A program made the position numbers and the translations under genes. Of a stretch of DNA of 64,000 nucleotides, positions 2,881 to 64,000 are shown in pieces (the stretch's first letter is position 1; the number at the start of each line of letters is the position of its first letter). The notes under the pieces are model-generated. The model was not told the origin of the DNA and did no database searches. It saw only the letters and a program-made list of their open reading frames with translations. This DNA comes from a virus. Taxonomy: Duplodnaviria; Caudoviricetes. Location of the stretch: positions 36,254-100,253 of IMG/VR virus record IMGVR_UViG_3300012979_000003, one strand, 5' to 3'.

Positions 2881-4338
2881 ATGGTAACAAAGACAGTTGC
2901 ATGGAATAGTGGAAGTGGTGTCATTACCTTGACTTATACAGGTCAGGGTAATGGCTCTGTTTCTGTCAAGAGCGATGCTAATGATAGTTTCGATGAGAGA
3001 AGTCAGAATCTGAATATAGTCACTACTGCTGGTAGTCCTGAGAAGGCTGTACAGGCGCTTGTGAAGCAAGCGGGAAAGCCGCTTGGCTGGACTACTAAGG
3101 ATTTTGATTATACGGGTAGTGTACAGGAGGTCACACTGCCAAAGGGAAGATATAAGTTGCAATGTTGGGGCGCACAAGGAGGTAGTGTGACAGGAACTTA
3201 TGCTGCTACTGGCTCCAAAGGCGGATATTCTGAGGGTATCATTACTTTGACGGAGACTACTACTCTGTATATCTTCGTAGGAGGACAAGGAGCGAGCTAT
3301 ACAAGTGCTGCAAGTCAGACATCCACTACTGTACTTAACGGAGGTTGGAATGGTGGTGGAGCTGGTGTGAGGACATCAAGATATAGCAGTGACGGAGTTG
3401 ATGGAAGGTCATTTCCAAGAGGTGGTGGAGGAGCCACTGACATTGCTATTGTAACATCATCTATGAGTTATCTTAGTGGTAGGACAAACAGAAGTTCACA
3501 ATCGCTATTAAGCAGAATCATAGTTGCTGGCGGAGGTGCTGGCGCAAGTGCAAGCCACACAATAAAGACAACAACGGAGAAAGAGTTAGTCTCAGCTAAA
3601 TTGCTGCCCGTTACAGTATGGTGGACAGACGGAAGCGGAAGAAGATGTGCACAAATACATATTACAGACTTGAGTATTTTCGATTCTTCGTATAGATATG
3701 CGCTACACTCTTCTGTAAGTGATAATGTTTCGCTTGTAACTTTTAATGTGCAAGAAAAACTTGGAGGAGCATTATTAACAGGTCTCAATATAACGCTGGA
3801 TGAACCATTTACTCTTCCTAATATCCCAAGTAATGCTACGTTTGCGCGATTTGACATTAGATATACAAGTGTGTCGGATGAAAGCAGTGTAACAGCCGAA
3901 TTGCTCAAGGAAGTAGTAACTACAGCCGAACAAGAATCATCAAGCAAGTCAACTACTTACCAACATGGCGGTGGTGTTCGCGGGCTTGGTGTATATCCAG
4001 GAAAGGAATCTTCTGCTGGGAATGGGGCTGAATTTGGTAACGGAGCGAACCAAATAACAACCAACTATCGTTATTGCGGAGGTGCTGGAGGTGGAGGCTG
4101 GTATGGCGGTGGCACTAATCATGGAGACAATGATGCAAATTATGTGCAATATAGCGGTGGAGGTTCAGGATTTATCAATACAGCCGCCAATGCGAGTTAC
4201 AGGCCGAGTGGATATACTGGATTGCAGCTTGATAGTGGCAGTACTACGGCAGGAAATAGTTCTCATCCTTCTGTGAGTGGTGGGACGGAAGTAGGGCATA
4301 GTGGTAATGGTTATGCGAGGATAACGGTTATAAACTAA
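2881..4338 (+). CDS. BACON plus glycine-rich (polyglycine-II type) tail/receptor-binding protein
   Basis: N-terminal BACON-like segment, then YKLQCWGAQGG, GGGGATDI, RIIVAGGGAG, GGAGGGGWYGGG and GHSGNGYARIT, all typical glycine-rich domain motifs. Confidence 0.75.
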   Translation: MVTKTVAWNSGSGVITLTYTGQGNGSVSVKSDANDSFDERSQNLNIVTTAGSPEKAVQALVKQAGKPLGWTTKDFDYTGSVQEVTLPKGRYKLQCWGAQGGSVTGTYAATGSKGGYSEGIITLTETTTLYIFVGGQGASYTSAASQTSTTVLNGGWNGGGAGVRTSRYSSDGVDGRSFPRGGGGATDIAIVTSSMSYLSGRTNRSSQSLLSRIIVAGGGAGASASHTIKTTTEKELVSAKLLPVTVWWTDGSGRRCAQIHITDLSIFDSSYRYALHSSVSDNVSLVTFNVQEKLGGALLTGLNITLDEPFTLPNIPSNATFARFDIRYTSVSDESSVTAELLKEVVTTAEQESSSKSTTYQHGGGVRGLGVYPGKESSAGNGAEFGNGANQITTNYRYCGGAGGGGWYGGGTNHGDNDANYVQYSGGGSGFINTAANASYRPSGYTGLQLDSGSTTAGNSSHPSVSGGTEVGHSGNGYARITVIN

Positions 4339-4343
4339 AGAAT

Positions 4344-4967
4344 ATGAGAATAGAAACTACAGAAACAAGTGTAAAGCTCATTGAACATTACGAAGAAAGA
4401 GGTCAATGGGCTGTGCGTTGGGACTTCAAGAAGAAGCCCAACGAGGAGGGTGTATATTTTTATGAGGAGGAAGTGTTCAACTTTATTCCAACAATAGAAG
4501 ACATTCAGCAAGTGATAACAGAGTGGCACAACAAGCAGACTGACGGAGTAATCAAACATGGCTTTGTGTGGAACGGTATCAGTGTATTGCTGACTGACGA
4601 GAACAAGTTCAACTATAAGGCCATCACCGATGAGGCGGCAAGACGTGAGACTGCCATCGCCATTTGGGACAAGGAGCATCCTGAATTAGCTGGGAAAGAT
4701 ATTATTTTTGTGGAAGGTGTAGATGAAGATGGTAATGCTGTTCAGATTGCCGATCCCACAGGAAGACCCCAATCGTTGCTTCCTGTAACGCTGAAACTTG
4801 GAGAGAACAATCTTCCTGAGAATTTCCACACGTTTACAACCTTGTCTGAATTGCAGGATTTCTTCAGTGCTGGTGTTGACCATTTGATTAGCGCGTATTG
4901 GGCAGGATGGTACAAGATTGCCACGTTCGATTGGATACCGTACGTTAGATCACTAGACCAACTGTAA
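4344..4967 (+). CDS. Tail fibre assembly-like protein (DUF4376-like)
   Basis: Directly follows the fibre gene; contains a GFVWNGISVLLTDENKFNYKA motif. Confidence 0.5.
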   Translation: MRIETTETSVKLIEHYEERGQWAVRWDFKKKPNEEGVYFYEEEVFNFIPTIEDIQQVITEWHNKQTDGVIKHGFVWNGISVLLTDENKFNYKAITDEAARRETAIAIWDKEHPELAGKDIIFVEGVDEDGNAVQIADPTGRPQSLLPVTLKLGENNLPENFHTFTTLSELQDFFSAGVDHLISAYWAGWYKIATFDWIPYVRSLDQL

Positions 4968-12536: not shown

Positions 12537-15500
12537 ATGCAGAACAGTTAGACAAATACCTTTTTAAAAGGTATGAATTTAGATACGGCAAAGGAGTTTA
12601 TCGGTTCCGACCAATACACATACGCTGAAAATATACACTTGTCTGCAAAAGATTAGACAGAAGGTTGTATAACAAATCACAAAAGCTTATATGATACTGG
12701 AGTTGCTGTTAACACCGATGGTAAAATTTTAGCAACAACGTCTGGTAGTATATATCATGAAGACTCTGTACAAGAATGCTACATCGTATTAAGTAAATTG
12801 CTTGACGGTAGCACAAATCTGTCAGCGTATATCGGAGTATCTGCTGTCGAAGAAACACCCATCAAGGTATTTGATCTCACGTCATTTACTTTAGATGTTG
12901 CTTCCGATAGGGTTAAAATGATAAATGTATATGACAATCCACATCAGTCAAATGTGTACATAGCTAGTGAAGGTAGTGAGTTGCAAGTAGTGAATCTTTA
13001 GGCAAAAAATAATCCAAATGACACGTTTTCAATATTTCCAGAAACCGGCGCATTACCACCAATGGAATTTTATAATGAAGTTGTCGGTGCGCTAGACAAT
13101 TGTAGTGTGCAATATGCATATCAATTATTCGACGTTCGCGGAAAGTATACTGCGTTATCAGCAGTAAGTTCTGTTATTCCGGTAGGAACTGGTAAACCAG
13201 GCGAATCTTCTGGACTCGGTTTGTAGTTAAAAATAACCGGTAATTTCAAAAATTATTCAAAGATACGTGTGTATAAAATAAAATACACTAGTTCGCTTGA
13301 ATTACCAAACGTGTATATAAAAGATGAAATAAATATATCTGGAAATACACAAATTATATATTAGGATACATCTGAGAAATTCCTTACCCAAATAACTTTA
13401 GATGAATTCCAAAATATAAAAAGAATTGGATTTTCTGCAGCAACTATTGAATTTTTCAACAATCGATTATATGCTGCCAACTTGACTGAAAATTTATTTA
13501 CTGTTGAGTTTGACGCTCGTACGTATCGTTGTGATGATTCAGGAACTGTAAAACTGGAGTCTGATACAAACGTGCAAGAAACTATAACAACAACAATGGT
13601 TGATGCGGTCAAGCCGAATACAATTGCTCAAGATCATGATGCAATAAATCCGTCATTGCGGTCAGTTTCTGATGAAAAATATAGTTACACCAACAAATTT
13701 GGAAATTTGTTTTTAGGTGGTTCTGGGCCGAATGTGGATTATTGTTTTGTTCATCCATACGTATATTTATCTGCAAACAACTCTGTGTGTATTGAGCCTG
13801 GCGCAGATTCAAATGTAGTTAGTTCAGATTTGTCGTTCAATAGTGGAAGTTTTACTTTAAGTGCCATAAATGGGTCTAAATTCTATGCCCCGTGTACAAT
13901 CCCATCCGGAACAAGTCAATTTGTGACCGAAGACTACATTGATTACGATGATATAGCCTATGTGGCTAAAGACAAATCATTCAAGGATACGTACTTTAGT
14001 ACGAAATTCAGGGGTTATAAACGAGGTGAGATATACTCGTTTGGTATAGTGTTTTATAACCGAAAACACTAGCCGTCACAAGTGCATTGGATAGGTGATA
14101 TAAAAATACCAAACTCTGACTATCCGTACATTGCTGCATACAGTGATGGTGACACACAACATGATTGTGTTGGTAGCTCCGTAGGTATACGATTTAAAGT
14201 TGACTTATCAAACATAGATAAGACAACGCGCGAAGACATTTCAGCATTTGAAATCGTAAGATGTGACCGAACGGTTGCCGATAAGACAATATTGTGTCAG
14301 GGTATATGCAGTAAGTTGAATGGTGGGTACTTTAGTAAAGAAGATGGATTTCCTGACAAAACGGGATTTGGAAAATTATTAAATACACCTTTTTGCAAAA
14401 ACGTATTTACTGAAATACGTATGATAGATCACTTAAGTGATATATCATACTCTGTGAACAGAGAGCGTCCTTATGCAAATGCTGTTGCGTTTATTTCTCC
14501 AGAAGTATCAACAAATCGTGAATCGGTTGAGGGACTGTTAGACGGAGCAAAAAATGTACAAGTTAAAGGATTTTTAACATCTGTTATATACAATGAATCT
14601 CCTTTTGAAAGGCTTGGCGACGGACTAATCGTATTTAAAAATATAACATAGGGAATAGTATATACTACTGATCGCCCAGAAGCAAAAGCTAAAGTACAAG
14701 GTCGTATTGTTGGGCAATATGATAATCATGATACCAGACCGCGCTATGTGTTCGGAATTACTTCCACAAATAGTTTGCGGAACGAAAACGATTCTATTCT
14801 TACTGACACACTATATAAACTTTTCACTCCGGTTGTTGACAGCCAATAGTCAGAAATTAAAACTATAAATTTGAACGCATACAAATACATAGCCCCATAC
14901 GATCCAATATAGCAATATTCCCCAATTTCGCTAGACAACACAGCTGTCGGTGATTTAGCATTTCAAAATATATGTAATGGTTTTCCATTAGGAGCTGACC
15001 CGACTGGCGACATAGGTAAATATTTTGGTGCGGGTGGTCCAAAATTAATATTGCTTGGAGATTTCTACAATCTTTAGATACTTGATGGTAGTGATGTACA
15101 CATTGCGTTGAATGACAAACTCAAACAAGTTGATGATTTTGTCAGATATGATACGTTTGCTAACAATATTCGAAATGTGTCGGAAATATTGCAAGTTGCT
15201 GTGCCAATAGTAGAGCTTACATAGGACGTTGGTAATTAGTATGGGGGGTTTTCAAAAACTGCCAGACTTAGCCGATCATATTAGTCAATTGGTTGTTACA
15301 GTAGTGTGGAAAAGGACGAATCTGTTTTTTACGTGAACTGCTTTGGCGGAGATACGTTTATTGAGTTGCACAACGATGTTTGGTCATCGTATATGACAAG
15401 GATTAAAAGTGATGGTGATACTTTTTCAGAAACACGTAACACTACTGTCAGAATATCATATCCTGTCGAGACCAGTATTAACCTTAGTAGGACGTATGGA

Positions 15501-62851: not shown

Positions 62852-62926
62852 TGGTGACAACAATTGGATTCGAACCAATAACTCAACTTAGTTGGGTTGT
62901 GATGTTACCATTACATCCATGTTGTC
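62852..62926 (-). tRNA. tRNA-like gene with encoded CCA and non-canonical anticodon arm (identity undetermined)
   Basis: GACAACA/UGUUGUC-A-CCA acceptor, GAUG/CAUC D arm, AUUGG-UUCGAAU-CCAAU T arm; anticodon region CAACCCAACUAAGUUGAGUU does not give a 7-nt U33 loop. Confidence 0.7.
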
Positions 62927-63071
62927 CCAGCTTTTTACGACATTAGCTTAGCCGTTGACTTACTGCATCACGCTGCGATGCAAGTGTAGTCAGTTACGAA
63001 AGTTTTGCCATTTAATTGGCGATAAGACCTATTCATTACATCTCACTACTAATCAAAACCAAAATACCCCC
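62927..63071 (-). ncRNA. ssrA: tmRNA coding piece (permuted two-piece tmRNA), tag (A)GKTFVTDYTCIAA
   Basis: Starts GGGGGUAUUUUGGUUUUGA. Resume context UUAAAU-GGC at 63009; tag ORF 63009-62968; H5-like stem around the stop; pk2-like ACGGC/GUCGU + AGCU/AGCU. Confidence 0.8.
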
Positions 63072-63186
63072 TTGTTTCTCCAAATCGCATATCCGTTGCC
63101 ACGGTATTTGGAGAAATGTTCTGCATCTTCGGATACTGGCTTTATTTTTGTATCTATCTGCGCGCTTGCCACTGCAAAATGCATAG

Positions 63187-63205
63187 TGGAGGTAGAGGGA
63201 TTCGT
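63187..63205 (-). ncRNA. ssrA: tmRNA acceptor piece, 3' exon (T-stem 3' strand, acceptor strand, discriminator)
   Basis: CGAAU-CCCUC-UACCUCC-A; UACCUCC pairs with GGGGGUA at 63071-63065 giving G3.U70 and A73. Confidence 0.75.
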
Positions 63206-63223
63206 CTTTGTATTACAACATTT

Positions 63224-63249
63224 GCAACCATATCCACTTATATACGTTA
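63224..63249 (+). promoter_or_regulatory. Putative ECF-type promoter GCAAC-N16-CGTTA for antisense HNH
   Basis: GCAAC-catatccacttatata-CGTTATA, 25 nt upstream of ATG 63275. Confidence 0.6.
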
Positions 63250-63274
63250 TATTTGTATGTTGAAAATTAATATT

Positions 63275-63880
63275 ATGCAAAAATACAAATGTGGTAGAAA
63301 GTTAGTCACGGTAATTTGTGATTACTGTGGATGTGAGGTTGAAAAACCGTTATCTGAAGTTAATAGAAATCGTAAATTAAATCGTCATTTGTTTTGTTCA
63401 CGATCGTGTGCGATGAAGTTTTTGAACAAAAATCGTACACAAGCAATGGATGAATATGCAAATTCGGAAAAGAATAAACAATTTTTAGCAAATCTCAATA
63501 ATACTTATTATGAGAGATATCCAGAAAAAGTGTTTTCTTATTTTTTACGTAACTGTAGAAAAAGGTATAAAGAGTGCACTTTAACTCTTCTCGATTTACA
63601 AGAGCAATGGGATAGGCAAAATGGTATTTGTCCGTATAGCGGGATAAAATTAAATATTCCAACGTATACTAAAAACCATAAAGATCCAATTCATAATGCT
63701 TCTGTAGATCGCATTGATAGTACTAAAGGATATGTTCCTGGAAATATTCAATTTGTTTCTACATGTATAAATTATATGAAAAACACAATGTCTGATTCAG
63801 ATACACGATTGATGTGTAAACATATCGCTGAATATTTCTATTCAGAAGGGACTATATCATCACCTTGCATTGCTGCTTAA
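63275..63880 (+). CDS. Intron-encoded HNH-type homing endonuclease, antisense to its intron
   Basis: CDYCG..FCSRSC zinc finger; CPYSG..NASVDRIDSTKGYVPGNIQFVSTCINYMKN. Confidence 0.85.
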   Translation: MQKYKCGRKLVTVICDYCGCEVEKPLSEVNRNRKLNRHLFCSRSCAMKFLNKNRTQAMDEYANSEKNKQFLANLNNTYYERYPEKVFSYFLRNCRKRYKECTLTLLDLQEQWDRQNGICPYSGIKLNIPTYTKNHKDPIHNASVDRIDSTKGYVPGNIQFVSTCINYMKNTMSDSDTRLMCKHIAEYFYSEGTISSPCIAA

Positions 63881-64000
63881 GGTGTCGGACGCTCTTGCTG
63901 GTTATTAAGGAAACTATATTCCTCCAGTAGTCTCTGCACTTTCTTAGAGTGTACTCTAAGCTTAGCTCAGGATTGGCATGTAAAAATGTCATTTCTGAGC

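Follow-up and report, generated by a model that had tools for sequence, protein, structure and literature searches.

A probable two-piece tmRNA gene, split in its T-loop by a group I intron, in a crAss-like gut phage

Permuted tmRNA genes and tmRNA genes of the intron form are both established (PMC11915505). The permuted order is that of the two-piece tmRNAs known from Alphaproteobacteria and from some Betaproteobacteria and Cyanobacteria, which are held together by the acceptor stem and P2 and are modelled in Rfam as RF01849-51, merged as RF04321. The intron form, in which a one-piece gene is interrupted by a group I intron in the T-loop, accounts for 883 sequences in the 2025 tmRNA database, which also includes 79 phage entries; a terminal G is reported in every one of these introns, and their endonucleases are of the LAGLIDADG type (PMC11915505). 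A 'permuted plus intron' form is absent from the five tmRNA forms tabulated there. Literature searches on tmRNA in crAss-like phages returned generic annotation mentions only, and we found no paper discussing the permuted form in these phages.

crAss-like phages are an abundant group of human-gut phages, for which Bacteroidia is the expected host class. Here we analysed the last 64 kb (hereafter the window) of a 100,253-nt virus record from a crAss-like gut phage, and conclude with high confidence that it carries a permuted (two-piece) tmRNA gene in which an 870-nt group I intron interrupts the T-loop of the acceptor piece. The locus has the topology of the bacterial two-piece tmRNAs, but belongs to phages of Bacteroidota hosts and has a much shorter coding piece with no recognisable PK1. 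With the intron-form genes it shares the T-loop group I intron and a U.G at the 5' splice site, whereas its two-piece order, its terminal A and its HNH/EndoVII-like endonuclease, encoded antisense, set it apart from them.

Layout of the locus across the circular join

The first 85 bases of the record are identical to its last 85, a terminal repeat that marks the record as circular, so that the 5' exon of the acceptor piece, absent from the window, sits at the opposite end of the contig; upstream of window position 64000 the minus strand continues from genome position 86 onward (locus L002). The Rfam group I intron model RF00028 matched the minus strand on either side of this join, with model positions 69-253 falling on window positions 63828-64000 (54.6 bits, E 4.2e-11, 5' side cut off) and positions 1-153 on L002 170-1 (45.4 bits). 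These two matches overlap across the 85-nt repeat and thus confirm both the intron and the circular join (Table 1). When ARAGORN and Rfam were run on the raw window, they returned a tRNA-like element and half an intron only, and no tmRNA. The gene became visible once the contig ends had been joined, candidate introns removed in silico and ARAGORN run on the resulting joins; all 4 joins that restored a T-loop of 7 nt gave a call of a permuted tmRNA ('tmRNA*') with the tag GKTFVTDYTCIAA, and the remaining 52 joins tested gave no such call.

Table 1. Features of the intron-split tmRNA locus. Positions are those of the window unless given as genome positions.
Feature	Position	Strand	Basis or remark
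5' exon of acceptor piece	genome C1:199-160	-	40 nt, ends GAGGGUU; found across the terminal repeat
Group I intron, first 74 nt (P1, P2, start of P3)	genome C1:159-86 (L002)	-	
Group I intron, in-window part (whole intron 870 nt)	63205..64000	-	RF00028 halves; boundaries from intron-free alleles
Ribozyme core, P4 to P9 (Rfam model positions 69-253)	63828..64000	-	RF00028
Endonuclease ORF, 207 aa, antisense to the intron	63257..63880	+	PHROG matches
3' exon of acceptor piece: T-loop CGAAU, T-stem CCCUC, acceptor UACCUCC, discriminator A	63187..63204	-	
Intervening sequence (spacer), 115 nt, between acceptor and coding pieces; removal expected	63072..63186	-	fold
Coding piece, 144 nt up to the next tRNA-like element	62928..63071	-	
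Tag reading frame, GGC...UGA	62968..63009	-	ARAGORN
tRNA-like element with encoded CCA, two bases after the coding piece	62852..62926	-	ARAGORN 'tRNA-???'; Rfam tRNA, 43.7 bits

On the minus strand the gene has the permuted order, running from the 3' tRNA half through an intervening sequence to the 5' tRNA half and the tag. The 5' exon begins at the stop codon of an 88-codon ORF, so that the strand directly before the intron P1 helix reads ...UAA GACUGUUAGGUCAUUAUACAGCUAUUAAGACGAGGGUU, and ARAGORN called no tRNA or tmRNA in this region. After in silico splicing, the T arm reads GAGGG-UUCGAAU-CCCUC. The coding piece opens at 63071 with GGGGGUA-UUUUGGUUUUGA, and its first seven bases form with UACCUCC a 7-bp acceptor stem that includes G3.U70 and is accompanied by the discriminator A73; acceptor stem, T arm and discriminator are thus those expected of a tRNA-like domain. 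CCA is not encoded after the acceptor strand, the next bases being CUA. The spacer has a fold z-score of -2.6 and contains an 11-bp stem just upstream of the coding piece.

Behind its acceptor strand, the coding piece holds a D-loop analogue, three P2 strands and a resume-codon hairpin, followed in its 3' part by the tag frame, a tag hairpin and a terminal hairpin or possible pseudoknot. No PK1 is apparent in the coding piece, where the small hairpin with the resume codon stands in its place. The tag codons are GGC AAA ACU UUC GUA ACU GAC UAC ACU UGC AUC GCA GCG UGA, that is, GKTFVTDYTCIAA and a stop, and the frame has the resume codon, in-frame stop, hydrophobic residues and AA ending of a tmRNA tag; the hairpin UGCAUC/GAUGCA, supported by covariation, encloses the stop codon. 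A candidate 3' pseudoknot (CGGC/GUCG with GCU/AGC) can be drawn in a region that is invariant, for most relatives by construction because it served as the search pattern; identical stem sequences are present in cr52_1 and cr53_1, both retrieved by BLAST. The model RF04321 could not be scored on this gene owing to the intron and the contig wrap. Charging requires a free acceptor 3' end, and therefore a working RNA from this gene order must be two-piece.

Much of this arrangement had been proposed in a first-pass annotation of the window, whose interpretation as a two-piece, intron-split tmRNA proves largely right. The group I intron core on the minus strand, the tmRNA 3' end (CCCUC, UACCUCC and A73, at 63204-63187), a structured spacer of about 115 nt, the 5' end GGGGGUA pairing with UACCUCC through G3.U70, and a tag with its stop inside a helix were all recovered, ARAGORN returning the same tag in the permuted tmRNA that it called, as had been suggested, after in silico intron removal; the compact coding piece, put at 145 nt, measures 144 nt to the next tRNA-like element. 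An upstream exon ending in GAGGG had also been predicted, and the one found across the join ends in GAGGGUU, pairs with 63052-63024 of the coding piece and, at 40 nt, is neither a complete tmRNA nor a complete tRNA.

Permuted tmRNA genes in the Suoliviridae

BLAST of the coding piece against phage records gave matches in Crassvirales, family Suoliviridae, and a 28-nt pattern from the coding piece retrieved 85 IMG/VR contigs; 81 related loci were resolved, with 51 distinct mature sequences. Among these Suoliviridae crAss-like loci, 69 of 81 are intron-free and 12 bear an intron, which in 11, counting this phage, is the intron described here and in one (L032) lies at another T-loop position. RefSeq annotates 'transfer-messenger RNA, SsrA' over the coding-piece match in cr125_1, cr114_1 and cr52_1, and ARAGORN calls all three permuted, with the tags GNFYVTDYTRIAA and GNTSYVTDYTRLVA. 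On RF04321 (tmRNA_permuted) these intron-free relatives are borderline, at 50.9, 46.3 and 41.3 bits (41-51 bits against a threshold of 47), and their T-loops read UUCGAAU, UUCGACU and UUCAACU. They resemble the present gene in gene order, start motif GACUGUUAGGUC, P2 helices, tag core VTDYT(R/C)IAA, invariant 3' hairpin region and downstream tRNA-like element, with coding pieces 73-78% identical to that of this phage, but they lack the intron and have the acceptor stem GGGGCAU/AUGCUCC instead of GGGGGUA/UACCUCC.

Closer in organisation are cr6_1 (Afonbuvirus, NC_055894.1), whose locus is unannotated, and about 10 IMG/VR contigs, which have the same T-loop intron site, antisense endonuclease and permuted order and are 84% identical to this phage over the intron. 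They differ from it in having ACGGG/CCCGU or GAGGG/CCCUC as T stem, GGGGCAU/AUGCUCC as acceptor stem and, in most copies measured, a longer spacer (132 or 192 nt versus 115 nt here). Spacers in the relatives are 16 to 193 nt long, apart from a single one that measures 597 nt. In nearly every relative inspected, a tRNA-Ile or tRNA-like element adjoins the coding piece or follows it within a few nucleotides; none was directly evident after the coding piece in L035 and L100. The element of this phage is homologous to the tRNA-Ile(GAU) found at the same position in relatives, with an anticodon loop one base shorter, and is one of two tRNA-like genes in the genome with abnormal anticodon loops, their anticodons being given by ARAGORN as 'ac' (here) and 'tgta' (genome 4166-4238, minus strand).

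At the level of sequence, covariation shows the predicted pairings between the acceptor and coding pieces. Across the 51 sequences, pairing of the T stem, whose halves flank the intron, holds in 100% of cells, and each of its 5 positions has changed on both sides; the acceptor stem occurs in five sequence types that are always complementary and always keep G3.U70; and the tag hairpin is paired in 98.6% of cells, with compensatory changes. The outermost P2 helix, P2c, reads AAGAC/GUCUU here and UUGAC/GUCAA in nearly all others. In the alignment, the codons for VTDYT in the tag differ among relatives mostly at the third position, synonymously, and the tag frames of the 51 sequences end in UGA or UAA, never in UAG. 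For several members, co-folding the acceptor piece with the coding piece produced the layout expected of a tmRNA.

These data bear on the reading that the pieces are unrelated, namely that a 3' fragment of a tRNA or tmRNA, such as an attachment-site remnant, lies by accident near an orphan intron and a chance GGGGGUA, with no two-piece tmRNA at all. Such a reading would account for the silence of ARAGORN and Rfam on a tmRNA in the raw window, but in dozens of phages the three segments are tied to one another by compensatory changes, ARAGORN calls the tmRNA once it is spliced, and the intron-free homologues are called by ARAGORN, RF04321 and RefSeq alike, which makes it scarcely credible. The permuted tmRNA is a trait shared by a whole family of Suoliviridae crAss-like phages and not a one-off. 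The first-pass annotation had taken it as an independent permutation in a phage; the two-piece order in a phage stands, but it is not special to this one and, when intron-free, is already annotated in RefSeq.

The surveyed loci held further variants. An intact tRNA-His gene lies inside the tmRNA intervening sequence of cr114_1 (L015 1351-1423), and likewise in L057 and L068; a tRNA inside an intervening sequence has been described as unique to one MAG (PMC11915505). Strong Rfam matches to RAGATH-9, RAGATH-20 and RAGATH-7-associated RNAs (120-154 bits; L014 1088-1256, L015 827-994, L016 889-991 and L017 887-1008) lie upstream of the acceptor piece, directly before it in cr125_1 and cr6_1 and at a distance of 250-330 nt in cr114_1 and cr52_1; in this genome no RAGATH RNA was found upstream of the acceptor piece, where the 88-codon ORF is located instead. 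A reduced tmRNA variant with a spacer of 16-18 nt occurs in L018, L022, L027, L058 and about 25 other IMG/VR loci. Most copies have a non-canonical T-loop (UUCGCC-like) and a D-loop analogue without GG, although the L058 group retains both a T-loop UUCAAUU and the D-loop GG, and ARAGORN calls none of them. It also misses an unannotated permuted tmRNA in cr53_1 (L019 about 1636-1910), with the T-loop UUUGAUC and acceptor stem GGGGCUG/CAGCUCC.

The T-loop intron, its splice junction and its endonuclease

The conserved ribozyme core (P3-P9) was recognised by RF00028 on both halves of the intron and in the contiguous homologue of cr6_1, which matches the model over its full length at 96.7 bits. 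Intron boundaries were taken from allele comparison: the exons of the intron-free L087 and of cr6_1 are identical, and the insert lies unambiguously between GGGUU and CGACU. The same comparison puts the intron of this phage at UU|CGAAU, within the T-loop, which is T-loop position 3 in the published numbering and a site reported from the class Bacteroidia only (PMC11915505). As read from the sequence, the intron guide UCGGACCC is complementary to the ligated exons GGGUU|CGA; in P1, GGGUU pairs with GGACCC, with a U.G at the last exon base at the splice site, and P10 is CGA/UCG. The guanosine-binding pair in P7 looks standard, G-C, in our own reading. Copies of the intron are 870-872 nt long, apart from that of L077, which lacks the endonuclease ORF and measures 297 nt. 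A scan of bacterial genomes with the P1 sequence gave no matches, and one with the core motif pointed to Omnitrophota, Planctomycetota, Nitrospirota and similar groups, with no Bacteroidia.

Group I introns usually end in G. Here, allele comparison gives the 3' end as ...AAGA|CGAAU, so that the terminal (omega) base is not a G; every one of the 12 intron-bearing loci in which the 3' junction was read, this phage among them, has A as the last base of the intron. A G sits one base upstream of the terminal A, and its use would leave an extra or altered T-loop base. Other 3' splice sites were considered. One at G63828, where the Rfam model ends and CGA comes next, was rejected, as cr6_1 and other copies have CAA there; it is also disfavoured by the 48-nt tail, which persists even in the endonuclease-free copy. 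Three junctions that would provide a terminal G mismatch the intron-free alleles and were kept as alternatives, namely U|ACGAAU, which would require U-A pairing at the splice site, UU|ACGAAU, which gives an 8-nt loop, and UUU|AAU, which gives a 6-nt loop.

With a terminal A instead of a G, splicing is thus a step that we infer. We consider it doubtful that the position-3 intron splices accurately despite its terminal A, or uses the upstream G to give a working tmRNA with the T-loop UACGAAU or UUACGAAU; if true, terminal-A splicing would make this a natural group I intron that ligates its exons without a terminal G. Alternatively, the intron allele may be a disabled copy, in which a homing intron invaded, at the DNA level, a two-piece tmRNA gene that worked, but has lost the terminal G and so fails to ligate the exons, leaving no functional tmRNA or only traces. 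Homing requires the endonuclease only and not splicing, most relatives (69/81) are intron-free, and the terminal A of the 12 junctions contrasts with the G that ends the related introns of cr128_1 (same site) and L032 (position 8), all of which would suit such a history. Yet the exons are intact and identical to those of working-looking intron-free alleles, the ribozyme core is intact (as the cr6_1 score attests), P1 and P10 are tailored exactly to this T-loop site, L077 keeps the ribozyme and both junctions after losing the endonuclease, and the intron is present in three different exon backgrounds; a disabled copy accordingly appears quite improbable.

Two related introns bear comparison with that of the two-piece tmRNA gene described here. 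In L032 (about 4123-4888), a ribozyme core 96.7% identical is inserted after the seventh base of the T-loop (UUCGACU), five bases further along, with a different P1-P2, a terminal G (...UAUG|CCCUC) and a different, canonical HNH gene; judged from these sequences, it looks like a relocation of the intron within the 7-nt loop. In cr128_1 (Steigviridae), a related intron occupies the site UU|CGAAU with the same P1/P10 design and an antisense endonuclease; it is 74% identical over its 3' half, and a second match spans the final 19 nt of the 5' exon together with the initial 72 nt of the intron. The gene order of cr128_1 is, however, standard, GGGGCAU lying some 430 nt ahead of the 5' splice site (located by eye), and its intron ends in G (...UUCG|CGAAU), as do those of three IMG/VR relatives (4/4 copies). 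The cr128_1 locus (L123 2325-3640; relatives L124-L126) appears to encode a one-piece tmRNA that starts GGGGCAU, contains the tag-like frame GNTYRAAA and is split by an 869-nt intron; it is unannotated and received no ARAGORN call even after in silico splicing.

The 207-codon ORF on the opposite strand of the intron has matches at E 1e-21 to 2e-13 among the PHROG families for endonuclease, endonuclease VII and HNH, with no Pfam family match, and its cr6_1 homologue carries an endonuclease annotation. As read from the sequence, the ORF is situated 3' of P9, for the most part within a peripheral loop that a short helix of GUUUACA with UGUAAUAC closes, and its last codons overlap the P9-to-P8 region of the ribozyme, including the 3' strand of P7. 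Eight nucleotides before its start codon, at 63224-63249 on the plus strand, the sequence reads GCAAC-N16-CGTTA, and the corresponding block AUAACG-N15/16-GUURC is conserved in other endonuclease-bearing introns. The C terminus of the endonuclease (...SSPCIAA, 63857-63880, plus strand) and the end of the tag (...YTCIAA, 62968-62982, minus strand) share CIAA, which may be chance or a degradation-tag-like tail on the endonuclease. The unrelated HNH ORF of L032 also ends in ...SSPCIAA, because its last codons overlap the ribozyme core.

Proposed maturation and genomic context

We infer each processing step, from splicing and cleavage into two pieces to charging and tagging, from established tmRNA and tRNA biology. 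The minus-strand transcript would run from the 5' exon through the intron and the 3' exon to the 115-nt spacer, and on through the coding piece to the tRNA-like element. The intron would splice itself out, and accurate splicing would join ...GAGGGUU to CGAAUCCCUC and so restore the T arm; UACCUCC would then pair with the GGGGGUA that lies 115 nt downstream, building the tRNA-like domain, and the three further helices (P2) would tie the acceptor and coding pieces together. RNase P is expected to cut before G1 of the coding piece (G63071) and again before the downstream tRNA-like element, which is likely to serve as an RNase P signal setting the 3' end of the coding piece, while the acceptor 3' end would be trimmed after A63187 and then receive CCA. 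Alanyl-tRNA synthetase could charge this RNA through G3.U70, and the charged RNA would enter stalled ribosomes with host SmpB and add the tag GKTFVTDYTCIAA.

No SmpB gene was detected in the phage genome, in which PF01668 had no match, whereas the control search matched in 10 reference bacteria including Bacteroides thetaiotaomicron; host SmpB would therefore be needed, and is presumed to serve the phage tmRNA. Reliance on host SmpB is usual for phage tmRNAs, and its absence from the phage does not exclude membership of the tmRNA class. The first-pass annotation had also suggested that the tmRNA could rescue ribosomes stalled during a TAG code switch. When TAG is read as sense, the longest open frame grows from 986 to 5,373 codons, and positions 14390-14464 of the genome encode a tRNA with the anticodon CUA, so that TAG recoding is real in this genome.

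The permuted and intron-split forms, two rare tmRNA gene forms each known singly, are combined here in one gene of an abundant group of gut phages. Standard finders are blind to an intron-split permuted gene, and the cr6_1 locus has no RefSeq annotation. Both one-piece (cr128_1) and two-piece (Suoliviridae) tmRNA occur in crAss-like phages, which is compatible with the idea that the permutation has an origin of its own, apart from the known bacterial lineages. As a live polymorphism, the intron may be lacking or present, may carry an endonuclease gene or not, and occupies either of two T-loop positions with a near-identical ribozyme core; the locus is therefore a natural system in which to study how introns move to new sites. 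For a phage that recodes TAG, an extra tmRNA may help to cope with ribosomes that read through host stop codons, an idea that can be tested.
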